IMG/VR virus record: IMGVR_UViG_3300029238_000243
Strand: one strand, 5' to 3'
DNA length: 64,000 nt
DNA from: a virus
The first letter of the stretch is position 1, and every line of letters begins with the position of its first letter. Positions 4,491 through 64,000 of the stretch are shown piece by piece. The translations under genes were made by a program, and so were the position numbers. The notes under the pieces are model-generated. The model had not been told where the DNA came from, ran no database searches, and saw nothing but the letters and a program-made list of their open reading frames with translations.

Positions 4491-5618
4491 TTCTTTGTGT
4501 TCTGTTTCTTTTTGCTCATCTGGATCTCCAAGCTTTTTCGCAGCCTCTTCCAGTTTTAATTTAAGGATTTCTAAACGTGCAGATATTTCTGGCAACGCTC
4601 TCGATTTCTCTGACATTTTTTCAAGCGCCTTAAGATCGTTAATAACCTTATCAATCATGTTGTTTGATCTTGTTAACGCCCTCATTCGTTTCATTTCAGC
4701 ATTCGATAACGATGACATAATCTCTTTTTGTTCCGCTTGCATTTCGTTGATTTTTGATTCTGCAAGTTCGCGTTCCTTTTCATTGCTTGCTTCTTCTTTC
4801 AGCTGCTCGAACGCCTTAATCTTTTTATCCGTATAATCAAGTCTTTCGTTTGCCGCTTCTTTTGTCTTCTGTAACTCTCGTGCTGCCTGAATATCATCCT
4901 CTGTCAGTTTGCCTTCTTCTTTTAAAACCTCAGCAAGCATCATCTGCTCCGTCTCTCCGAATCCAGCAATTTCCGCAGCCGTATTAATGGTAATTATTTT
5001 GTTTTCCCAAGCTTCGCGTAATTCCGGATTCAGTTTTGTGATTGCGATATACTTATAAATCTGACGTTCCGTCATCCTGTAAGAGTCTGCAATCTTTTTC
5101 GATACACGTTCATCGTCACCGTCTGTATTTTTCATTTCATACAACTCCAATAAACGTTGAATATCTTTGATGTTCTTTTCTAAAGTCTGCGTACGAACCT
5201 GAGCATTTGCTTCGATCAAGGCGATTTCTTCATCGACTTTTGACATTTCTGGCCTCACATGACACGGAAGCAAAGCCCCAGGAAATTGTTCTTTGAATTT
5301 ATCCGGATACTCATCACGAATCAAACGGCAGGCTCTTAATCGTCTTTCTCCAGAAATTAGCCGGACCTCTCCGTTTTCGTTTTCCTTTGTTGTTACAAAG
5401 TTGTGAAATAATCCGTTTTCCATAATACTGAACGCTAGAGACTGAATATCAATTTGATCGAATCTCTCATTCAGTTCGTTTGTAATAATTTTATCGATGT
5501 TGATATAGCGCATTCCGTATGCATTGCTCGCTCTTTGTTCATCAATATTTGTTGAACCCGGAAGCTTTCCGGATGATGTTACGCCCGGCATAAACTTAGG
5601 TCGTGTTGTTGTACTCAT
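4488..5618 (-). CDS. parB: ParB-like partition / nuclease-domain protein.
   Basis: It has the ParB/Srx motif LISGERRLRACRL and a coiled-coil Lys/Glu-rich C-terminus. It overlaps parA by 4 nt. Confidence 0.8.
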   Translation of the reverse strand: MSTTTRPKFMPGVTSSGKLPGSTNIDEQRASNAYGMRYINIDKIITNELNERFDQIDIQSLAFSIMENGLFHNFVTTKENENGEVRLISGERRLRACRLIRDEYPDKFKEQFPGALLPCHVRPEMSKVDEEIALIEANAQVRTQTLEKNIKDIQRLLELYEMKNTDGDDERVSKKIADSYRMTERQIYKYIAITKLNPELREAWENKIITINTAAEIAGFGETEQMMLAEVLKEEGKLTEDDIQAARELQKTKEAANERLDYTDKKIKAFEQLKEEASNEKERELAESKINEMQAEQKEIMSSLSNAEMKRMRALTRSNNMIDKVINDLKALEKMSEKSRALPEISARLEILKLKLEEAAKKLGDPDEQKETEHKE

Positions 5619-7495: not shown

Positions 7496-7532
7496 CATAT
7501 TTGTTTGCAATATAAGTATCCATATTTAGGAT
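7496..7532 (+). promoter_or_regulatory. Class-B promoter-like box (CCATATTTAGG), placed in tandem after the class-A box.
   Basis: CATATTTAG lies 55 bp upstream of the ATG at 7582. The same decamer recurs about 18 times in the window, always oriented toward a start codon. Confidence 0.4.
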
Positions 7533-7581
7533 AACAAGATAAGTGAGCACAATATGTTGTATTTGAGAGAAGGAGAATATT

Positions 7582-18117: not shown

Positions 18118-18216
18118 TAGCCGATAACGAAACAACGAATGCGAGATATAGATTCCTTCAGTTGAGTCCATATTTAGGATAACAAAAATGTTACATACAA
18201 AAAGGAGGAAACAAAA

Positions 18217-28078: not shown

Positions 28079-28322
28079 GCCGTAAAACAGAAAACAGATC
28101 TTCTTATGAGGGTCTGTTTTTCTTTGCTTGAAACTTGTACATATTTAGTAAATAAGGAACAATAAGTAACGTTCCGAATAATCCGCAATTATAAAGAAAG
28201 GAACTATCACATTGTCAACTACCCATCACAAAGGAGTAAGGAGTGAAAGCTGCCACCTTATGGTGTGCAGAGGAAACTCCGTTCATGTACAAAATAATTA
28301 GAAATATTTTGTAATTTCCTGA

Positions 28323-28360
28323 CGAGGTTTCCAAAATGTGAGCCTTATTGGTATTAAAGA
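28323..28360 (+). promoter_or_regulatory. Class-A promoter-like box inside the mini-element.
   Basis: ATTTCCTGACGAGGTTTCCAAAATGTGAGCCTTATTGG. Confidence 0.4.
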
Positions 28361-28388
28361 GTTTAGAAATAACTCTTTGCGGTTCCAA

Positions 28389-28697
28389 CTGAGACCGTAA
28401 GACTGCAGGACGAAGAGTCCTGTGAAACCTACCATGTAGGGATGTCTTGAACGTTTCTGCAACGGAGAGACTACATCGCTCAATTTATTGAGGGATTGAG
28501 TCTGTATTTCAAGACCACATCAGACAGATTTGAATACCATAAAAAAAACACTGGGAAACTTCAGAGAAGATCCAGATGTCCTGGTATTTCAAACCTTAAG
28601 TGATACCACTCCTTCGGAGTACAGTTCACTCGAGATAAACTCTCGTGATGTCCTCCTGTACTGAAACCTGCCACCTACTGGCGTGCAGATCAGTTAG
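28389..28697 (+). ncRNA. Orphan omega-RNA-like scaffold (the TnpB guide-RNA 3' region) with no adjacent tnpB.
   Basis: It is about 85% identical to the reverse complement of 61973-62200, the region downstream of tnpB, with two extra insertions of about 50 nt. Confidence 0.4.
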
Positions 28698-28859
28698 TAA
28701 GCCAAGATTATAGAACTGCTAATGTTCTATAATGCTAAGCTTCGGAGTGTGTTTGAGTAACAATTTGACAGAACAAAGAAAGGGAACGACATAGCCAGGA
28801 GTGCTCCTCCCACGACTGAAGGCGTGGGTCTCCGCACATGGCTTGTTAAAGGTATTAAG

Positions 28860-29639
28860 ATGAAAAAGAAAGCAGTAACATTGTTGTTAGCCAGTATGTG
28901 TCTCGGTATGTTAGCTACCGGATGCGGTACATCCGCTTCAACAAAAAACACAAAGACCACGGTTGCAACAGAAGCATCCGCTGAAACAGAAACAGAAGTT
29001 GAAACAGAACAGCCGGATGAGGTAGAGGCAACCGAGATAGTGATCGAAACAGAAACAGAAACAGAAGCGGTCGATGAATCAACAGAAACTGCTGATACAA
29101 AATCAGCAGAAACCGCAACAATCGGTGGCAACTATGTCGATTTTGATAACATGCAGTTTGCGATCAACGGAAAAACATATACATTAGGTCAGACTACATT
29201 ACAGGAACTGATCGATGACGGAGTTCCGTTTAATGAGGATGATATTGCAAATGCATCGAATAATTTGAATAAAAACAGCCAGTCCAGTGGATTCCGCATC
29301 ACATTAGGGGACTATTGGAGTGGACAGGTATATGTATTCAACGATTCAGATGCAGGCAAAACAGCATCCGAGTGTTACATCAGCGAAGTATACTTACCAA
29401 TGCATATTGGAGAAACACAGAACGTAATGTCGTTTGCTTTTCCTGTTGATATGACTTTAGACGAATTGCTCGCAAACGAAAGCGATCCAACAGACAACAG
29501 AACATACGAAGGTGAAAGCCACACAACTGACACAGTAGAATACAAGAAGGATTCAACTAAGTATTATGGTCAGTATGGTTACAAGTTCGAATTCCTTGAT
29601 GGAAATCTTCAGTATATAACCATTGACTACCTGCCATAA
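28860..29639 (+). CDS. Lipoprotein with an acidic Thr/Glu-rich low-complexity linker.
   Basis: It has a signal peptide plus lipobox (LLLASMCLGMLATGCG) and a (TETE)n region encoded by a gaaacagaa DNA repeat. Confidence 0.7.
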   Translation: MKKKAVTLLLASMCLGMLATGCGTSASTKNTKTTVATEASAETETEVETEQPDEVEATEIVIETETETEAVDESTETADTKSAETATIGGNYVDFDNMQFAINGKTYTLGQTTLQELIDDGVPFNEDDIANASNNLNKNSQSSGFRITLGDYWSGQVYVFNDSDAGKTASECYISEVYLPMHIGETQNVMSFAFPVDMTLDELLANESDPTDNRTYEGESHTTDTVEYKKDSTKYYGQYGYKFEFLDGNLQYITIDYLP

Positions 29640-30623: not shown

Positions 30624-31754
30624 TTAAGTTCCGGGAACGAGTTTTTGGTATCCATAAATATCCCAAGCAAGTGTTCGTACCATAGCCCCGATACTTCTGA
30701 TCCGTTCCCCTTTTTTGATATATGTCTCATGGAAACGCGACAATGCTTGTACAATGCAGGATACTGGCAGTTGTAGCGAAATATTAGCAACGTCTCGAAT
30801 ATCCTCATTTGTTAAAGATAGTAGAGAAATCTTTGTCTTTTGTTTTTTGTTGACTTTTGTGATGTCTGCATTGATACGACTTAAGGCAGATTCAATTGTT
30901 GCTTTGGCATCATCTACTTTAACCGATTTGATACGAATTGGATTGTATTCTTCTTTCATTGTAATATAAAAGAAGGAACGTTCTTTTGATAACTTTACAC
31001 CGAACATCTGACAGAAATGATCTGATGTAATCGTATTTCTGATAAGTTTCTTTGTTGCATACGCTGGAAGCATGCGTTTAATGTCAGCATAAGAAGTCTC
31101 ATGAAGGATCTGATTTTTCGTTGCACCTTCAAGAGTTGAAATAACGCCTCTTAACTGAAGCCTTAGTTCATTGATCGTCTGACATCCAAGAAGGATCTTA
31201 AACATATCGTAAGACAGCACAAAATAACCACGTCCACCCTGGGATGCAGTTTTCTTGTTTTCGGTTGACGACAATAGAAACACTTGGTATGTTCCTGTAT
31301 ATAGACCTTTTGTATATGAAATATAACCACGTTCCGACAACGTATGTAAATTACGAATGACAGAACGCCTGGAACAGGATAAAATAGTTGCAGCTTCTTC
31401 TAATTCAATACGAAGGTACCCGAATTTATCCGAGCGCAAAAAGTGCAGGTACAGAAAAAGTTTGATTGCAAGTGTAGGAAGCTCTTTTTTGTACCCGAAA
31501 CGATTGTGCTCATTAATATAGGTACGAACCTGTTTTTTGACAAATTGTTTCTGATCACAGGATTTCGCACAATTAACACCTTTTTTGTAATAAGGGCACG
31601 CGTAACAGTTACTAGAATCAGGGTCCACGATGTCTGTTGTGATAACATCTGTAAGGTAATGATTCTTTTGACATCGAATTGCTGTTACGACTGCGGCTGT
31701 GTTTATAATTGTCGTATCTGGATATTCGTGTTCAAAATAGATATTTGCAGACAT
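30624..31754 (-). CDS. Putative replication-initiation / winged-helix DNA-binding protein with an N-terminal Cys cluster.
   Basis: It has a wHTH-like segment (FGYLRIELEEAATILSCSRRSVIRNLHTLSERGYISY). It lies immediately next to the iteron array. Confidence 0.45.
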   Translation of the reverse strand: MSANIYFEHEYPDTTIINTAAVVTAIRCQKNHYLTDVITTDIVDPDSSNCYACPYYKKGVNCAKSCDQKQFVKKQVRTYINEHNRFGYKKELPTLAIKLFLYLHFLRSDKFGYLRIELEEAATILSCSRRSVIRNLHTLSERGYISYTKGLYTGTYQVFLLSSTENKKTASQGGRGYFVLSYDMFKILLGCQTINELRLQLRGVISTLEGATKNQILHETSYADIKRMLPAYATKKLIRNTITSDHFCQMFGVKLSKERSFFYITMKEEYNPIRIKSVKVDDAKATIESALSRINADITKVNKKQKTKISLLSLTNEDIRDVANISLQLPVSCIVQALSRFHETYIKKGERIRSIGAMVRTLAWDIYGYQKLVPGT

Positions 31755-31839
31755 CGCGTCAACTCCTTTCTTCTAACATTTTCCACAAACATAACAGTTT
31801 AATCGACAAAAGTAAAGGGTTCCCAAAACAGCAGAAATC

Positions 31840-32625
31840 GAAACAAAAACGAATAAATCGAACCAGTAGGTACCGAATGAGAAAATATCGAAAGAAACGG
31901 TACCGAATGAGTGAATATCGAAAAAACAGGGGTCAAAATTTGTTTTATCGAAAGAAAAGTCGTTTATCGAAAAGAATGCACAGAATCGAAAGAAATAGGT
32001 ACCAAATGAATCAATATCGAAAGAAACGGTACCGAATGAGTGAATATCGAAGAAAACAGGTACCAAAATAGTTTTATCGAAAAATATAGCACCAAATGAA
32101 TGCTTATCGAAAAATATGGTACCGTTTGAAAAATATCGAAAGAAACAGGTACCAAATGAGAATTTATCGAAAAATATGGTACCAAATGAATGCTTATCGA
32201 AAAATATGGTACCGTTTGAGAAATATCGAAAAATATGGCACCAAATTAGATTTATCGAAAAATACGGTACCAAACGAGTGTTTATCGAAAAATATGGCAC
32301 CGATTGAAAAATATCGAAGGAAACAGGTACCAAATGAGAACTTATCGAAAAATGCGGTACCAAATGAATGTTTATCGAAAAATGCGGTACCAAATGAGAA
32401 ATATCGAAAAATATGGTACCAAATTAGATTTATCGAAAAATACGGTACCAAATGAGTGTTTATCGAAAAATACGGCACCAAATTAGATTTATCGAAAAAT
32501 ACGGCACCAAATTAGATTTATCGAAAAATACGGCACCAAATGAGTGTTTATCGAAAGAAACAGGTACCAAATGAATGCTTATCGAAAAATACGGTACCAA
32601 ATGAAGCAATAACGAAAGAAGCAGT
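31840..32625. repeat. Iteron array of about 26 tandem direct repeats of 29-30 bp (TATCGAAAAATAyGGyACCAAATGAnnnnn).
   Basis: The period is visible directly in the sequence. The array sits in a divergent intergenic region, and the six-frame ORFs across it are repeat artefacts. Confidence 0.85.
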
Positions 32626-32696
32626 GCCAAATTCTATCAATTGCACAACGGACCAAAAACAATTATAATGATGCTATAAGAACGGAGGATAACAGA

Positions 32697-35775: not shown

Positions 35776-35839
35776 TTGATCTCTCGTCATCCATATTTAG
35801 TAAATATAAATATGTTTGAAAAAAGAGAGGAGAATTCAT

Positions 35840-37874: not shown

Positions 37875-37984
37875 TATTTGTTTCCTCCACTAATCAATGT
37901 TTACAGGGATTTTCCCTGCTACAGTTAAATATGTGTGAGTTCTGAACAAAGGAATAACAAAAAGAGAAGCCAAAGAGCAGACTT

Positions 37985-39407: not shown

Positions 39408-39446
39408 TGATAAGGCTCAAAGTATGGAAAACTCGTCAGATTTGTT
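39408..39446 (-). promoter_or_regulatory. Class-A promoter-like box driving the minus-strand MazG operon.
   Basis: Its reverse complement is CAAATCTGACGAGTTTTCCATACTTTGAGCCTTATCAT. Confidence 0.45.
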
Positions 39447-50040: not shown

Positions 50041-51975
50041 TTATGACTGATAGAGTTCTGTTTCGTAATACTCTCCTTGAAGCACACCATTATAGTACAA
50101 CTTCAAAAGTATTATATCATATGTTTCCCCATAAATGTCAAGTGTTTCTCCAGACGGTTCCAAAGTAAATGCATATCCGCTGTCTGTGAAATTCGAATAG
50201 GAACTGTCTGCTTTCTTCAGATAATAGATCTTGTCACCATAATTGAAGACTTCCAGAGAACCTATTGATCCGCCATTTATGTTTCCGCACCAGCCTTCTA
50301 CTCCGCCGTCTTCCGTAAACATGCTTAATGATATTGTCTGTCCATCATTGCTTGAGTAAGAACCCGGTGTATTCCAGAAATTGCCGGTTGGTGTATAGTT
50401 CGGAACCGGGATATTTCCGCTCTGATCAACAGTCTCCTCTTCTGCTTGTACTTCTGTTCCCTCCGGAGCCGTTTCTGTCGGTTCTTCAGTTGTTTCTTCC
50501 ACTACTTCTTCGGTTTCTGTTTCCGGAATTGATTCTGTTACAGTGATATGGGATGCATATATGGCATTCATCTCTGCTTCCCCATTTGTAACCCAATCAT
50601 TGTATGCGTCGTCAGCACCAGAGAAAATAATGTCATCTTCTGTAATGCAGTACCATTCATCAAAACTATAACCGTCAGAATTGATCATCTTGTTTATATC
50701 TTTAAATTGAGTATGTTCGTCTTCATCATAGACAAGCTCATAATCCGATTCCTCAGAATACATAAAAGTAGAATCAGCCAACACAACGTCTATATTCATA
50801 TCTGGATCTTCAATGTATTTATTATATTTTTCAGATTCAGGAACACGATTGAGCATGTAACCACCACCATCTGTCTCATAAGTAAAATATATACGTCCTT
50901 TATATTCTCCGAAATACCACTTTTTATCATTATCTTTTTTCATTTCTGAGAATCCTATATTATTTGATTCACACTGGAATAAAACTCCTCCATGTTCCAC
51001 ATCATCAATCTCATTTATATATAATTTAAGCGGATATTTATATTCACGAATACTAATATATTTTACACCGTATCTATGATCTACATTATATTTAGCCCAT
51101 TGAGGTAATTCCTCTTTCTGCTCCTGCATATGCACAATCGCTGCTGCTCCACCTCCGACAACAAGCGTTCCGGCGACAATGCCTGCGATCACCTTTGTTG
51201 CGATTCCCTTTCCGGCGCCTGCTGCTACTGTGGCTGCGGTTGTTCCGGCAACGGTACTTCCGGTTCCTGCTGCGGCTGTAACTGCTTTAGTTGCCGAAGA
51301 CACTGCAGCCGACATTGCCGGAATCTGTGTCGTCTGTGCCGCTTTAACATCCTCTTTAAGCAGCAACAGGAAGAATGGAATCGGAGCAAGACCATAAAGC
51401 TTGGTCCCCTTCTTTTCAAGATCTAATACTTTGTCCTTGATCTTTTGTCTGCCATAATTCAGGCGGCTCTTAACGGTATTCTCTGATACTTCAAGCACGG
51501 ACGCCATTTCTTTTACAGACATCTGCTCCATATAGAACATTGTGACACAGATGCGCTGTTCATCTGTCAAAGTATCAATGATCTCTTTCATCAGTCTCGT
51601 TGTCTCATTCTGGTCCATAACGATTTCCGGCTGAACAGACACACGGTCATCCACAAAGGTATCACTGATATCCTGTCCGTCTTCGGTTTCTGTTTCTGAA
51701 AACAAGGTTACCTTTCTCCGTTTTAACTCGTTTTTGGAAAGGTTCGACACAATCGTTCCGATCCAGGACTGAAACTTCTCCGGATCTTCCAAGGTATCCA
51801 GAGACTTAAAAGCCTTCACATAGGCATCCTGAACGATATCCTGAGCTGTGTGCTCGCTGTTTAAAAACTTCCTCGCCAGGTAAAAACATTTCGTATACGT
51901 TTTCTCATACAGGTACGTATACGCTTCCTGATCTCCTTTCATTGCTTTTTGTACTGCTTCAGTATAGCTATTCAT
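50041..51975 (-). CDS. ECF-type sigma factor fused to a TM segment and a roughly 380-aa extracytoplasmic C-terminal domain.
   Basis: It has ECF region 2 (DIVQDAYVKAFKSLDTL..FQSWIGTIVSN) and region 4 (LTDEQRICVTMFYMEQMSVKEMASVLEVSENTVKSRL), followed by a hydrophobic Ala/Gly-rich stretch and a long C-terminal domain. Confidence 0.75.
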   Translation of the reverse strand: MNSYTEAVQKAMKGDQEAYTYLYEKTYTKCFYLARKFLNSEHTAQDIVQDAYVKAFKSLDTLEDPEKFQSWIGTIVSNLSKNELKRRKVTLFSETETEDGQDISDTFVDDRVSVQPEIVMDQNETTRLMKEIIDTLTDEQRICVTMFYMEQMSVKEMASVLEVSENTVKSRLNYGRQKIKDKVLDLEKKGTKLYGLAPIPFFLLLLKEDVKAAQTTQIPAMSAAVSSATKAVTAAAGTGSTVAGTTAATVAAGAGKGIATKVIAGIVAGTLVVGGGAAAIVHMQEQKEELPQWAKYNVDHRYGVKYISIREYKYPLKLYINEIDDVEHGGVLFQCESNNIGFSEMKKDNDKKWYFGEYKGRIYFTYETDGGGYMLNRVPESEKYNKYIEDPDMNIDVVLADSTFMYSEESDYELVYDEDEHTQFKDINKMINSDGYSFDEWYCITEDDIIFSGADDAYNDWVTNGEAEMNAIYASHITVTESIPETETEEVVEETTEEPTETAPEGTEVQAEEETVDQSGNIPVPNYTPTGNFWNTPGSYSSNDGQTISLSMFTEDGGVEGWCGNINGGSIGSLEVFNYGDKIYYLKKADSSYSNFTDSGYAFTLEPSGETLDIYGETYDIILLKLYYNGVLQGEYYETELYQS

Positions 51976-58974: not shown

Positions 58975-60099
58975 ATGAATATATTACAATCCATCTTTAC
59001 CGATTATTATGAACACATCATTTACGAACTCCATCCTCGTCCTGCTGTCATTGAAAATGTCAACAAGATGATTCATTGTGGTGATCCTTCTCACGGTGGT
59101 GCCATGTATGGCTGTCCTCACTGTGGAAATCTTAAATTTGTTCCCTTTCGCTGTAAAAGTCGTTTTTGCCCTTCCTGCGGAAACAAATACAACCAGCTTC
59201 GTTCTTTTCATATGTCCTGTAAGCTTGTTTCTTGCGTTCATCGCCATTGTGTTTTCACTATCCCAGCGGAACTTCGCGTTTATTTTCTCGAAGACAGAAC
59301 TCTCTTAGATTGTTTATTTCATTCTGTTCGTGATGTTGTCTTACGCATGTTTTCCAAAATGAATAAAACCGAAAACTTTACTCCTGGGCTTATCTGTGTT
59401 CTTCACACTTTTGGGCGTGATTTAAAATGGAATCCTCATATCCACGCTCTCATCTCAGAGGGTGGGGCTGGTAACATCACTCCTTGGCGTCCTGTCAAAC
59501 ACTTTGATTACAATTTCCTTCGTAATGCTTTTCGCAAAGTACTGCTTGAACGACTTACCTCCCGCATTGGTCCGGCTTTTCGCAAAGTCAAAAATGAAAT
59601 GTACACGAAACACGCTGACGGCTTTTATGTCCGTGCAAAACCAAATCTTTGCACTCCTGATATCACCATTAAATACATCAGCCGATACCTCGGCAGACCT
59701 GTTATTGCCACATCGCGTATTGATACTTATGACGGTGAAAACGTAACCTTTCATTACACCAGACACGAAGACAATAAAACTGTTACTGAAACCATTCCTG
59801 CTTTAAACTTCATTCAAAAACTCATTGTCCATATCCCCGAAAAACATTTCAAAATGCTTCGCTACTATGGGATATATGCAAAACATCATAAGCAGGAAAT
59901 GAAGCTCCGTAAATGTATTTCTGCCGAAAAACAACGTTTCCTACGTTCTATTCAGGACTGGCGGCAATCCATTCTGCTCTCTTTCGGATACGACCCTCTC
60001 TGTTGTTCCGAGTGTGGTACTTCTATGTTGGTTTTAGAAGTTTACCACAAAAAAACTGCACTATTTGAACAATATCGAAAGGTTATGAAATATGGATAA
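58975..60099 (+). CDS. IS91-family (Y2 HUH rolling-circle) transposase.
   Basis: It has an N-terminal zinc-binding motif (CPHCG..CPSCG), the HUH motif HTFGRDLKWNPHIHALISEGG and the segment RYLGRPVIATSRI. A hairpin (CCCCTAACCCCTCATTCATGAGGGGAAGGGG) lies upstream. Confidence 0.75.
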   Translation: MNILQSIFTDYYEHIIYELHPRPAVIENVNKMIHCGDPSHGGAMYGCPHCGNLKFVPFRCKSRFCPSCGNKYNQLRSFHMSCKLVSCVHRHCVFTIPAELRVYFLEDRTLLDCLFHSVRDVVLRMFSKMNKTENFTPGLICVLHTFGRDLKWNPHIHALISEGGAGNITPWRPVKHFDYNFLRNAFRKVLLERLTSRIGPAFRKVKNEMYTKHADGFYVRAKPNLCTPDITIKYISRYLGRPVIATSRIDTYDGENVTFHYTRHEDNKTVTETIPALNFIQKLIVHIPEKHFKMLRYYGIYAKHHKQEMKLRKCISAEKQRFLRSIQDWRQSILLSFGYDPLCCSECGTSMLVLEVYHKKTALFEQYRKVMKYG

Positions 60100-61398: not shown

Positions 61399-61708
61399 TT
61401 ATTCGTTTCCTTTCCGTCATGTTTTTTCTGACGGTTTAAATATGTGCGAGTAAAAAACAAAGAAATACGATTTGAAAACGAAGCAATTCTACCGGTAAAC
61501 ACAGCAAGTCTGTTTAATATTTTTAGATCCATGGGTGTTTCATCCGGATCATCATCTTCGTACGGATCATCATCTTCGTACGAACTATCATTTTCGTACG
61601 AACGAGAACGGCGACGATGGCCATTTGATGTCATAACACGGTTCGATGTTGTTAAAGAACTCATTAAAAGTGGCGGCATCGGCATCATGATTAGCAGTTT
61701 CCTCCTTA

Positions 61709-61972
61709 TTAACCAAAATAATAAGTACCATTAACAGTATCCAAAAGTGCGGTTACATTGTTGAGTTTGATATTTAGGTTATCGAAGTCTACAATTTCCG
61801 AAAACTTTACGATATCATAACTCTTACTGTCAATAATTTCTCTGAGTTTATCAGTCGCTGCTTTCCCTGTTTTGTAGTAATTGATGAGGTTTACAATATA
61901 ATTTCCAAAAACATAGACATATAGGACAACGAATACAGCAGCAGCACAAATTGTGCGATCACGATACTCAAG
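61709..61972 (-). pseudogene. 3' part of a membrane-protein gene interrupted by the IS605-family insertion.
   Basis: The reading frame is open right up to the IS right-end boundary and contains no start codon (LEYRDRTICAAAVFVVLYVYVFGNYIVNLINYYKTGK...). Confidence 0.55.
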
Positions 61973-62200
61973 CTAACTGATCTGCACGCCAGTAGGCGGC
62001 AGGTTTCAGTACAGGAGGACGTCACTTAAGGTTTGAAACACCAGGACATCGGGATCTTCATTGAAGTTTCCTGGTGTCTTTTTTATGGTATTCAAAGCTG
62101 TCTGTTGTAATCTCTCCGTTGCAGAAACGTTCAAGACATCCCTACAGGGTAGGTTTCACAGGACTTTCGTCCTGCAGTCTTACGGTCTCAGCTGGAACCG
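61973..62200 (-). ncRNA. Putative omega RNA (TnpB guide-RNA scaffold) downstream of the tnpB 3' end.
   Basis: A conserved structured region lies between the tnpB stop and the right end of the element. It is duplicated in the mini-element. Confidence 0.45.
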
Positions 62201-62278
62201 TTTAAAATGTATATGTAAAATAGAAACTGTAGTTTTGTTCTATGTGTGTATATAAAAAGTTATTGTTCCATGTATGTG

Positions 62279-63766
62279 TTACGCAGCTCTTTTGAGTCCA
62301 AAACTGGAAGGGATATGTTTTACGGACCGTAAGATCTCGGTAATACACTGGTCATGCATATTTTTAAACTGAGGATAGTTCTGAAGGCATTTATCACGGT
62401 CTGTGTGTTCCAAAGTATCATCGGAATTCATGAGGAGAAAAGCACTGTAGAGATCACGCTGTACCCATTCTCCGTTTATGGTGTTGTGACGTCTGGAAAG
62501 TTTCTTTCTCCAGTACGTATCACTGGTATGGTCATACTGGCTTGCTTTAAACGTCCAGGTATTGACTTCGTGGTAGGTTCCTCCGGTGTAACCAAGCTTT
62601 CTCTTCAATATGGTAAGAAACTGGGATGGAGCTCTGGTCCCGATGGATTTTCCGAAGCGTTTCTTCCGTTTATATTTCCCTTTCTTATTCTTTTCCGTCT
62701 TTTTGGACCGTTTCTGTAATCCCTTGAAATTCATGTCCTCAACATAAACCTCATTGCCTTCTTCCAATAACAGGTTCGCATAGGCTTCCTGCCATTGTCT
62801 CAATGTGTCGGAACGTTTTCTCTGCATCGCACTGAGTTCGTTACGGATCTTTTTGTACCGGTTGCTGTAGTTCCAGGTTTTCCTTCCCTTCTTTATGGTA
62901 CCGTCCGCATTGTAATTGTCCGGATTGGATGCCCGTCTGGATCGTTCCAGTTTTCGCTGCATCTTCCGGATCTTTTTATCCTGTACTTCAATCCCTTTCC
63001 CAAGTTCTGTGAGATGACATTTTGTATCACTCACTGTAGCAACAGTGGAAGTACCAATATCAATACCGACCCTTCCGGTACCCACTGCATGTCTTAACGG
63101 CGGTGTCCCTTCCTGTACCAATTGTACGTAGTATCTCCATCCGGTACTGAACTTCTTTCTTACAATTCTGCAGTATTTTGTTCTGTCATTTAAAGCAGAA
63201 GTCTCGTAATACCAATGATCCGTGTTTTGATTTCCTGGTAATATCACATCCAGTGTCAGACCACGGTTCTGTCTCTTTGGGGATGCATTGATGTATACTT
63301 TTCCGTCTTTGTAGATGATCCCTGTTGTATTCTTTTTGCCTTCGAAACTTAAGAATTCATCCCATTTCTTGTAATGGATCTGTTTCCCGGTGGAATACAA
63401 TACTTTTTCCACACCTTTCCATACCGAGTCACTGATCTTCTGATAAACTGCAGAATGTACGTATTTTAAGTTACATCTCAGTTTTGTGGCGGATTTCTGG
63501 AGGTCGTATTGTGTGAGCCCGTAAGATTTTACAATAACAGATAACTGTTTTGACAGGGCTACCTTCTCTGGACCTTTCTCAAGTGCCACATACTGCTTTA
63601 AGAGATCCGTATAAGTTTTATCCCGTTTCAGTAATGTGATCTGCCGGATCGCAAAACGACGGATTGTATTACCGATCTTCGCTACTTCTCGGAAATAGTT
63701 TTCCAGGTAACGCTGGTCGGAATATTTCTTTGTATTCAGTTTTAACTCCAGCGTGTAAGTAGGCAT
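62279..63766 (-). CDS. tnpB: TnpB-like RuvC-fold nuclease (IS605 OrfB family).
   Basis: It has RuvC-I (VGIDIGTSTV), RuvC-II (EVYVEDMNFKG) and a C-terminal RDLYSAFLL (RuvC-III-like) motif. The true start is MPTYTLELKL, with the RBS ggaggaaaacgatcATG. Confidence 0.75.
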   Translation of the reverse strand: MPTYTLELKLNTKKYSDQRYLENYFREVAKIGNTIRRFAIRQITLLKRDKTYTDLLKQYVALEKGPEKVALSKQLSVIVKSYGLTQYDLQKSATKLRCNLKYVHSAVYQKISDSVWKGVEKVLYSTGKQIHYKKWDEFLSFEGKKNTTGIIYKDGKVYINASPKRQNRGLTLDVILPGNQNTDHWYYETSALNDRTKYCRIVRKKFSTGWRYYVQLVQEGTPPLRHAVGTGRVGIDIGTSTVATVSDTKCHLTELGKGIEVQDKKIRKMQRKLERSRRASNPDNYNADGTIKKGRKTWNYSNRYKKIRNELSAMQRKRSDTLRQWQEAYANLLLEEGNEVYVEDMNFKGLQKRSKKTEKNKKGKYKRKKRFGKSIGTRAPSQFLTILKRKLGYTGGTYHEVNTWTFKASQYDHTSDTYWRKKLSRRHNTINGEWVQRDLYSAFLLMNSDDTLEHTDRDKCLQNYPQFKNMHDQCITEILRSVKHIPSSFGLKRAA

Positions 63767-63803
63767 GATCGTTTTCCTCCATTTTAGTTTCTTAGCTATA
63801 TAC

Positions 63804-63840
63804 ATCATAAGGCTCACTTTTCGGAAACCTCGTCACATTT
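63804..63840 (-). promoter_or_regulatory. Class-A promoter-like box about 45 bp upstream of tnpB, inside the IS.
   Basis: Its reverse complement is AAATGTGACGAGGTTTCCGAAAAGTGAGCCTTATGAT. Confidence 0.45.
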
Positions 63841-63902
63841 TTACATATTATTTTGTTTTATTTTACTGAAATTCATCTGCACACCAGAAGGTGGCAGCTT
63901 TC

Positions 63903-64000
63903 TTTCAGATTTTCTTTGTAAACGCCATAACCTGCCAACGCTAAAAAGACAGCTAAAAATAGTACCCAAAATGCGAAATGCAGTTTTCTGTTTTCCTCTG
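63903..64000 (-). pseudogene. 5' part of the IS-interrupted membrane-protein gene. It continues beyond the window.
   Basis: The translation ..KLHFAFWVLFLAVFLALAGYGVYKENLK ends exactly at the IS left border. Confidence 0.5.

Follow-up and report, generated by a model that had tools for sequence, protein, structure and literature searches.

Can a transposon that has lost its nuclease gene go on supplying a guide RNA to the nuclease of a relative in the same genome? The question is raised by a short locus in the IMG/VR virus record IMGVR_UViG_3300029238_000243, of which we analysed a stretch of 64,000 nucleotides (nt), hereafter the window. The window is a 64-kb piece of a phage-like gut replicon of 320–360 kb. 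Upstream of a lipoprotein gene, at 28230–28697 on the plus strand, lies what its sequence identifies as a non-autonomous, tnpB-deleted derivative of an IS200/IS605-family transposon (IS605-type, with Y1 TnpA and TnpB). This mini-element of 468 bp keeps a complete structured left end, a promoter-like box, a whole ∼230-nt scaffold of the omega-RNA type and the right end. Between its ends there is nothing of the 495-amino acid (aa) tnpB open reading frame (ORF), and its coding capacity is limited to ORFs of 44–61 aa, none of them supported. Judged from these features, the chances appear about even that the RNA of the mini-element is made and is able to load TnpB.

The mini-element aligns with both ends of a full, tnpB-only IS605-family element of 1945 bp at 61973–63917 (minus strand), the candidate provider of TnpB in trans. 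Its left part aligns with the left end of the full element (63917–63767, minus strand), and its right part (28380–28697) with the reverse complement of 62200–61973, the 228 nt that follow tnpB. The boundaries of the full element are set by its empty site, found in four contigs (L256–L259), where GGCGTTTAC is joined directly to CTTGAGTATCG; the occupied site reads TTTAC-element-CTTGAG. This joint shows that the full copy inserted 3′ of TTTAC without duplication, and the 20 nt after its right end are the empty-site sequence next to TTTAC. By homology, the mini-element extends from 28230 to 28697 and its transposon-adjacent motif (TAM) is ATCAC at 28225–28229 (plus strand), directly 5′ of the left end. 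At eight independent sites where the family has inserted, the left end is preceded immediately by the pentamer [A/T]T[C/T]AC and the right end has the form ...GCAGATCAGTTAG; the boundary reads ...GATCAGTTAG, and the flanks diverge right after ...CAGTTAG. These eight sites and the empty site of the full copy place the start 15 nt upstream of 28245, the position given by the initial annotation for a 453-bp element. The same annotation had described a tnpB-less copy with a left-end hairpin, a class-A promoter box and a scaffold; the alignments to the full element bear this out, with all three parts present far beyond chance.

The ends of the mini-element have the hairpin structures of the family. 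At the left end (28240–28280, plus strand), an outer stem GGAGT/ACTCC surrounds an inner hairpin CTGCCACC-TTAT-GGTGTGCAG at 28250–28270. Both stems covary: the outer stem occurs in the family as GGAGT/ACTCC, AGGCT/AGCCT and CTGAAA/TTTCAG, and the inner stem as CCACC/GGTG and CCGCC/GGCG. The right-end hairpin, CTGCCACC-TAC-TGGCGTGCAG, lies at 28668–28688 (plus strand) and contains one A.C mismatch that is peculiar to the mini-element. The left- and right-end hairpins, CTGCCRCC...GGYGTGCAG, covary across members, and the mini-element has both, in accord with the imperfect subterminal hairpins, in place of terminal inverted repeats, that mark the IS200/IS605 family. Homology to the tnpB 5′ untranslated region stops near TAGAAAT and scaffold homology begins with CGGTTCC at 28380. 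The deletion junction between promoter box and scaffold holds a short leader hairpin, read from the sequence as AAAGAGTT...AACTCTTT (28356–28378, plus strand). Directly after the right end, where the flanks of the eight sites diverge, is the would-be guide TAAGCCAAGATTATAGAACT (28698–28717, plus strand), which is unique in the window at up to three mismatches. As had been proposed, this flank, and hence the would-be guide, differs from that of the full copy (61953–61972). Without the element, the joint at this site would be CCCATCAC followed by TAAGCCAAG, or ATCAC followed by TAAGCC in its canonical form.

The scaffold (28380–28697, plus strand), which reaches to the right-end boundary, has a fold supported by covariation. 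Compared with the full-copy scaffold (61973–62200, minus strand; 228 nt, defined by alignment and fold), it has 20 substitutions over 233 aligned positions; the earlier claim of homology to the sequence downstream of tnpB thus stands, but the identity is 91% and not ∼85%. We aligned nine right-end regions, namely those of the window full copy, L001, L005, L129, L130, L132, L133, L135 and the mini-element. The resulting consensus has 57 pairs in 10 helices, and 24 of these pairs show compensatory changes among the nine members. Paired cells amount to 96.4%, compared with 33–39% in controls slid by 1–3 columns, and the covariation score is 0.325, compared with 0.04–0.06 in the slid controls; none of 500 shuffles reaches the observed values. 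The region after tnpB is thus a structured and conserved RNA reaching exactly to the transposon boundary, the arrangement seen in omega-RNAs. The mini-element retains 56 of the 57 consensus pairs. Of the 20 positions at which it differs from the full copy, 16 are in unpaired columns. Pair 304/314, which is G-C or A-U in all other members, is A.C in its right-end hairpin. Fold z-scores are −2.7 for the mini-element scaffold and −3.5 for the full copy. These data fit a mini-element scaffold that would still fold. Rfam gave no match, whether over the window with gathering thresholds or over the two right-end regions when E values up to 1 were allowed.

Two insertions interrupt the scaffold. They had been estimated at ∼50 nt each, which agrees with the 44 and 45 nt found here. 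Both lie in inter-helix junctions and each folds as one or more self-contained hairpins. Insertion 1 (28473–28516, plus strand), recognized by alignment and predicted fold, is 44 nt long, forms a hairpin and occupies the junction after helix 5; in IMG/VR it is found only within copies of the mini-element. Insertion 2 (28605–28649, plus strand) is a 45-nt micro-repeat nested in the scaffold, flanked by GTGAT and ending in GTGAT. The repeat consists of two small hairpins (ACCACTCCTTCGGAGT ACAG TTCACTCGAGATAAACTCTCGTGAT), the first of which shows one compensatory change. It also occurs in L001 at 5334–5383 (minus) and 5410–5456 (plus) and in 24 IMG/VR contigs (L238–L255), in both orientations. 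The surrounding sequence is of three kinds, the repeat always lies 3′ of a GAT or an AAT, and every copy ends in GTGAT(AC). One copy is polymorphic, present in L001, L002 and L004 and absent from L003 and L005. The repeat may be a very small mobile element made of hairpins, similar to repetitive extragenic palindromic (REP) sequences or palindrome-associated transposable elements (PATEs); a more remote possibility is that a single-strand (Y1-type) transposase mobilises it, which would make it exceptionally small for such an element. In L001–L005, at positions ∼5000–5500, downstream of the sister tnpB element, it is hosted by ∼110-nt tandem units (GGTTCC..AGTAATCGAAGTGTATT..CAGCTTTCGGAACC ... 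GTATCAAAACTTGCACTAGTGTTGTTATTGAAT); these units were not found in the window.

The promoter-like box in the left end, TTTCCTGACGAG-N12-TGAGCCTTAT (28315–28348, plus strand), is an exact copy of a motif, here termed class A, that is present 11 times in the window. Its core, GACGAG-N12-TGAGCCTT, is exact in the mini-element at 28321–28346. The 11 exact copies of the core, compared with 0.02 expected by chance, are at 1743, 7444, 13858, 21067, 22870, 24769, 25666 and 28321 on the plus strand and at 39437, 58454 and 63834 on the minus strand. Most are followed by a same-strand ribosome-binding site (RBS) and start codon, and one is inside the full element, upstream of tnpB (63809–63834). From copy number, orientation and spacing we infer that the class-A box is a promoter. 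The motif is unlike a sigma-70 promoter, and a 644-aa protein with a sigma domain of the extracytoplasmic function (ECF) type (50044–51975, minus strand) might read it. In autonomous relatives, tnpA stands behind a TGGTATAAT-type promoter at the position of the class-A box, so the phage-borne lineage has exchanged tnpA and its promoter for the replicon's own promoter type. We also considered whether the ten further class-A boxes are left-end remnants standing alone and rejected this, as none has the left-end hairpin and most of those inspected precede an RBS and start codon. Across contigs, the box of the mini-element is exact in all examined but two, L045 (GGCGAG) and L262 (spacer change).

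Comparison with a relative that lacks the mini-element identifies it as an insertion. In L260, a relative with ∼90% identity that carries a 91% identical lipoprotein allele (P0142), a second type of box (class B, CATATTTAG...) and the phage RBS AAAGAAAGGAA run straight into the lipoprotein ATG; in the window, class-B box and RBS occupy 28140–28204 (plus strand), the RBS itself ∼28194–28204. Class-B boxes (..CATATTTAG.A.AA.AA..) are present at 28140–28170, 7518–7544, 18166–18192 and 35789–35815 on the plus strand and lie 27–75 nt upstream of start codons, the distance being 27–64 nt for the ORFs at 7518, 18166 and 35789; the minus strand has related boxes near 37923, 58009 and 61434. Homology between L260 and the window covers 28119–28207 and resumes from 28859 on. 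The joint in L260 reads ...class-B box...ATAAAGAAAGGAAACTATTTCAC followed by GATGAAAAAG, also ...AAAGAAAGGAAACTATTTCAC followed by GATGAAAAAG, and the insertion point is right after the TAM-type pentamer TTCAC. All DNA absent from L260 amounts to 648 nt (28211–28858, plus strand), made up of 19 nt, the 468-nt mini-element and 161 nt. Since this includes more than the mini-element, the event was composite or had several steps. A comparison of presence and absence among relatives had been proposed as a check, and its outcome is an insertion within a composite difference of 648 nt.

The additional 161 nt contain a hairpin, CCCACGACTGAAGGCGTGGG (28809–28828, minus strand, within 28698–28858), similar to a right end from another IS605-type family. 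Its minus-strand sequence, CCCACGCCTTCAGTCGTGGGAGGA, matches the right ends ATCCCACGRCTTSAGYCGTGGGAGKATGTCAAG of five loci (L071, L198, L220, L205 and L213; blastn-short E 0.003–0.04), all of which belong to a different TnpB element family of Lachnospiraceae. This hairpin is probably the remnant of a second IS605-type insertion between the mini-element and the lipoprotein gene. Two routes fit the 648 nt: successive IS605-type insertions at one spot, or movement of the mini-element with captured flanks through the use of alternative motifs for cleavage, as Meers et al. 2023 (PMC10055086) have reported.

The initial annotation had proposed that the insertion cut the lipoprotein gene off from its promoter. 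L260 confirms that the class-B box and RBS have been separated from the gene, but the gene is not simply orphaned, as the inserted DNA supplies its present RBS (AAAGG, 7 nt before the ATG) and a co-oriented class-A box. An RBS had also been placed within 28138–28250. The RBS-like AAGGAGTAAGGAGTG (28231–28245) is part of the transposon, namely the outer stem of its left end, and this stem covaries in autonomous relatives; we therefore rejected it as the displaced RBS of the lipoprotein gene. The plus strand from 28122 to 28860 contains no terminator-like site. A homologue with 56% identity to the lipoprotein gene lies in what is a bacterial chromosomal setting, beside genes for aspartate aminotransferase and a GHMP kinase (L263 and L264), so the phage gene is probably host-derived.

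The mini-element is present at this one locus in more than 40 other contigs at 96–100% identity, and all contigs with the exact dUTPase or lipoprotein protein, except L037, carry it at the same place. In L037 the dUTPase is followed by different genes. L045 (ERZ28566666 scaffold_1447, 2340–2520) has the same mini-element, right flank and lipoprotein gene with a different left flank, a divergently oriented Endonuclease_NS gene; the breakpoint corresponds to window position 28224, one base before the TAM. Its left end resembles that of L001, the hairpin is degenerate and the promoter box differs at one position, which suggests recombination at or within the left end of the element rather than transposition. 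L037 and L045 were accordingly rejected as empty sites and are module exchanges. Look-ups with the exact dUTPase and lipoprotein proteins returned only occupied sites. When the scaffold profile was run with nhmmer against 1.37 Mb of fetched loci, no further tnpB-less copy was found, the right ends of relatives with ∼40% TnpB identity being out of its reach. A right-end pattern scan of GTDB genomes gave 0 matches, which indicates that the close lineage is absent from the species representatives, and bacterial relatives are at most 44% identical. With one locus only, the mini-element gives no sign of moving as such. Nor is it a deletion product of the resident copy at 62–64 kb, a candidate origin that we rejected: its scaffold is 92.7% identical to that of L001, a sister element in other phage contigs that is slightly closer to it than the resident full copy, and its left end is clearly L001-like.

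The candidate partner of the RNA is the 495-aa TnpB of the full element, encoded at 62282–63766 on the minus strand. It matches Pfam PF01385 with 34.5 bits, just above the cutoff, and phrog_506 with an E of 2e-39; its family comprises more than 4,300 matches, with proteins of ∼490 aa. Residues D236, E343 and D438 are invariant in 21 family members, and the CxxC zinc-finger cysteines are replaced by FRASQYDH. An AlphaFold2 (AF2) model has a predicted local distance difference test (pLDDT) score of 87.5 and a Foldseek probability of 1.0 to TnpB (8iaz, 8h1j, 8exa) and Cas12f structures. A PDB sequence search with this TnpB gave no match, and only the fold search gave relatives. In L130, L133 and L135, relatives at 83%, 69% and 65% TnpB identity, a Y1_Tnp gene (Pfam) is directly upstream of tnpB, which marks the lineage as genuinely IS605-type. 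The full element splits, after codon 44, an ORF for a predicted membrane protein of 131 aa (flanks 61700–61972 and 63918–64000); the ORF is intact in L256–L259 (P0121, with 169 sequences in its cluster). Among the long contigs with its neighbouring gene, the full element is invariably 100% identical.

We conjecture that the mini-element is maintained by its own guide RNA as follows. A transcript of the scaffold, the flank TAAGCCAAG... and the lipoprotein mRNA would arise from the class-A box, which precedes the scaffold by ∼30 nt, together with read-through from the class-B box. The scaffold would be bound and trimmed by TnpB from the full copy 34 kb away, and the resulting ribonucleoprotein would be specific for ATCAC followed by TAAGCCAAGATTATAG. 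This target, ATCAC-TAAGCCAAGATTATAG, is the joint that precise excision of the mini-element would leave, and cutting of the joint with repair from an occupied copy would keep the mini-element in place. As a side effect of the insertion, the lipoprotein gene has come to lie ∼650 nt from its class-B box and RBS, with the class-A box and a new RBS in exchange. Selfish maintenance by cleavage and repair has been published for this transposon family (Meers et al. 2023, PMC10055086). The intact D-E-D triad and TnpB fold make loading by the resident TnpB plausible, and the presence of a compatible TnpB in the same genome in all long contigs supports supply in trans.

Several observations weigh against this proposal. 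No tnpA was found by tblastn in the 64-kb window (best E 0.05), so excision, and with it any need for homing, may not occur. The empty joint, searched as TCAC-N0-3-TAAGCCAAGATTATAG, had 0 matches in IMG/VR, and the same pattern had 11 matches in JGI metagenomes, all unrelated to this phage and about the number expected by chance. A second locus of the mini-element was not found in the window, in 255 fetched loci or in IMG/VR pattern scans. The proposal is further weakened by the 89 nt of extra hairpins in the scaffold, by the right-end A.C mismatch seen in no other member, and by L260, whose allele is the only one without the mini-element; the difference there is 648 nt, and the guide of the mini-element would not direct cleavage of that allele. 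Finally, the retained pairs could have been inherited from an unsampled full-length parent rather than kept up in the mini-element.

We rejected the 11 JGI matches as targets; eight are in a putative Der/EngA-like GTPase gene and three in other sequences. The eight (L147–L149, L151 and L153–L156) read GATCAC-C-TAAGCCAAGATTATAGAAT and come from an AT-rich organism. They present 18 nt identical to the would-be guide of the mini-element next to TCAC, the only TAM-plus-guide match seen, which the size of the database leads us to attribute to chance.

The same locus can be read in other ways. It is possible, though we think it unlikely, that the mini-element is an inert fossil, a dead deletion derivative that nothing removes, on which no TnpA acts and whose RNA has no partner or effect, in a phage genome that is highly conserved. 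Its confinement to a single locus in every contig, the lack of tnpA in the window, the mismatched right end and the foreign hairpins in the scaffold are all in keeping with such a fossil, as is the absence of the canonical empty joint from IMG/VR and JGI metagenomes. Moreover, identity across contigs, at 99–100%, is no higher in the mini-element than in its flanks and so does not speak for selection on the mini-element itself. A fossil accords less well, however, with a promoter-like box that is exact in all contigs examined but L045 and L262, with a scaffold that has kept all but one of its pairs despite ∼8% divergence from every known full copy, with two insertions that both avoid helices and with a compatible TnpB in residence. 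We consider it decidedly doubtful that the insertion is a domesticated regulatory cassette, in which a class-A promoter drives the lipoprotein gene through a long structured leader and a new RBS, to the benefit of the phage and with a change in the timing or amount of expression, and the scaffold serves only as leader. The gene in L260 has a class-B box and RBS only, and the gene in the window has gained the class-A box and AAAGG from the inserted DNA; no terminator-like site intervenes, the insertion is found in more than 40 contigs, and the divergent left flank of L045 leaves the box of the mini-element as the sole co-oriented promoter candidate for the lipoprotein gene there. Yet it is in L045 that the box is mismatched, descent explains fixation equally well, and a regulatory role needs no 230-nt scaffold.

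Two further readings carry little weight. The mini-element might belong to a phage-adapted, split RNA-guided system, in which the full copy supplies TnpB and a promoter-driven orphan guide RNA extends the target range, and which the phage, or the element, would use in co-infection to cut related genomes with the unoccupied allele. We regard this as improbable. If true, the mini-element and the neighbouring lipoprotein module would be dragged into co-infecting genomes, an RNA-guided analogue of homing-endonuclease marker exclusion, and an IS605 lineage would have given up tnpA and a sigma-70-type promoter for the phage's promoter type. That the 468 bp are ancestral phage sequence, or resemble a transposon by chance, is hardly conceivable: the sole point in favour is that all close relatives carry the mini-element, but the sequence shares homology with either end of an element that also occupies other sites, for one of which the empty site is proven, and L260 lacks the sequence, with an insertion point after a TAM-type pentamer. 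The empty site of the full copy and L260 together refute this reading. Among all these accounts, the proposal that the RNA is made and can be loaded by TnpB remains, as stated, at even chances.

The replicon that carries the mini-element is very large. Contigs L137, L140 and L141, from human-gut samples, reach 321,813, 321,850 and 363,733 bp, and a search of INPHARED phages with the mini-element and its surroundings, in near and distant modes, gave no match. Elsewhere in the window, ∼17 iterons of ∼30 nt (TATCGAAAAATAYGGYACCAAATGAG) at 31837–32651 adjoin an ORF at 30624–31754 (minus strand) whose 376-aa product has weak helix-turn-helix and replication-initiator/DnaD-like matches; the iteron array is probably a replication origin. 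An IS91-like Y2 transposase gene (Zn_Tnp_IS91 and Y2_Tnp domains) at 58975–60099 (plus strand) is present in the window and in L137, L140 and L141, and absent from the otherwise identical L138, L139 and L142. In L031 (ERZ28657226 scaffold_585), a 1.5-kb insertion at 1204–2719, equivalent to the window junction 27356/27357, encodes a different TnpB of 376 aa (domains HTH_OrfB_IS605, OrfB_IS605 and Cas12f1-like_TNB). It lies directly after a 231-aa gene upstream of the dUTPase, and the window lacks it. This insertion is further evidence of IS605-type elements entering this phage lineage.

The mini-element is a natural case of the modularity proposed for obligate mobile element-guided activity (OMEGA) systems, with a guide-RNA module apart from the nuclease gene and an intact TnpB in the same genome. 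Less usual are its setting in a phage-like genome from the gut that exceeds 320 kb, the adoption of the phage's promoter type by a transposon, a TnpB subfamily that lacks the zinc finger and has no solved sequence-level relative, and the polymorphic nested 45-nt repeat. At this locus an IS605-type insertion re-wires a probably host-derived lipoprotein gene, which acquires another promoter box, a different RBS and a structured leader of 650 nt. Knowledge of the boundaries, TAM, empty site and RNA fold allows testing of a zinc-finger-less TnpB and of the tolerance of its scaffold to inserted hairpins.

Among known systems, the mini-element is a well-resolved example of an already described kind and opens no new category. 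In Geobacillus stearothermophilus, IS605 derivatives that lack genes and resemble PATEs, as the paper names them, are known from Meers et al. 2023 (PMC10055086) and often encode omega-RNAs that need TnpB in trans. Like these IS200/IS605 derivatives, the mini-element has both ends, no protein gene and a scaffold that adjoins the right end; it would need TnpA and TnpB in trans, and its predicted target is its own donor joint. It differs in having one locus, on a phage-like replicon and not a bacterial chromosome, a replicon-type promoter in the left end and two extra hairpin insertions in the scaffold. PATEs, and likewise miniature inverted-repeat transposable elements (MITEs), are recognized by several dispersed copies or other signs that they transpose, so 'deletion derivative fixed at one locus' is the safer label for the mini-element. 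With ISDra2, IS608 and ISGst2 the family shares a subterminal hairpin at each end and duplication-free insertion 3′ of a TAM of 5 nt; further common features are the Y1 TnpA that its close relatives encode, the TnpB fold with its RuvC D-E-D triad and a structured RNA that runs to the right-end boundary. In contrast to those elements, this TnpB subfamily (∼490 aa) has FRASQYDH in place of the CxxC zinc-finger cysteines and no sequence-level PDB match, its RNA has no Rfam match, the scaffold lies wholly downstream of the tnpB stop, and the TAM is [A/T]T[C/T]AC. In 2021, Altae-Tran et al. reportedly described stand-alone (trans-acting) omega-RNA loci for IscB/IsrB systems. The likeness to these loci is a guide-RNA gene apart from the nuclease gene; here, however, the RNA is still within transposon ends and the guide is the element's own flank. 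MITEs and mini hairpin elements of the type associated with REP sequences and their tyrosine transposases (REP/RAYT) are likewise short, non-coding and hairpin-bounded, with a transposase in trans. The mini-element differs from them in being single-copy and in carrying an RNA gene, and it is its nested 45-nt insertion 2 that resembles this class most.

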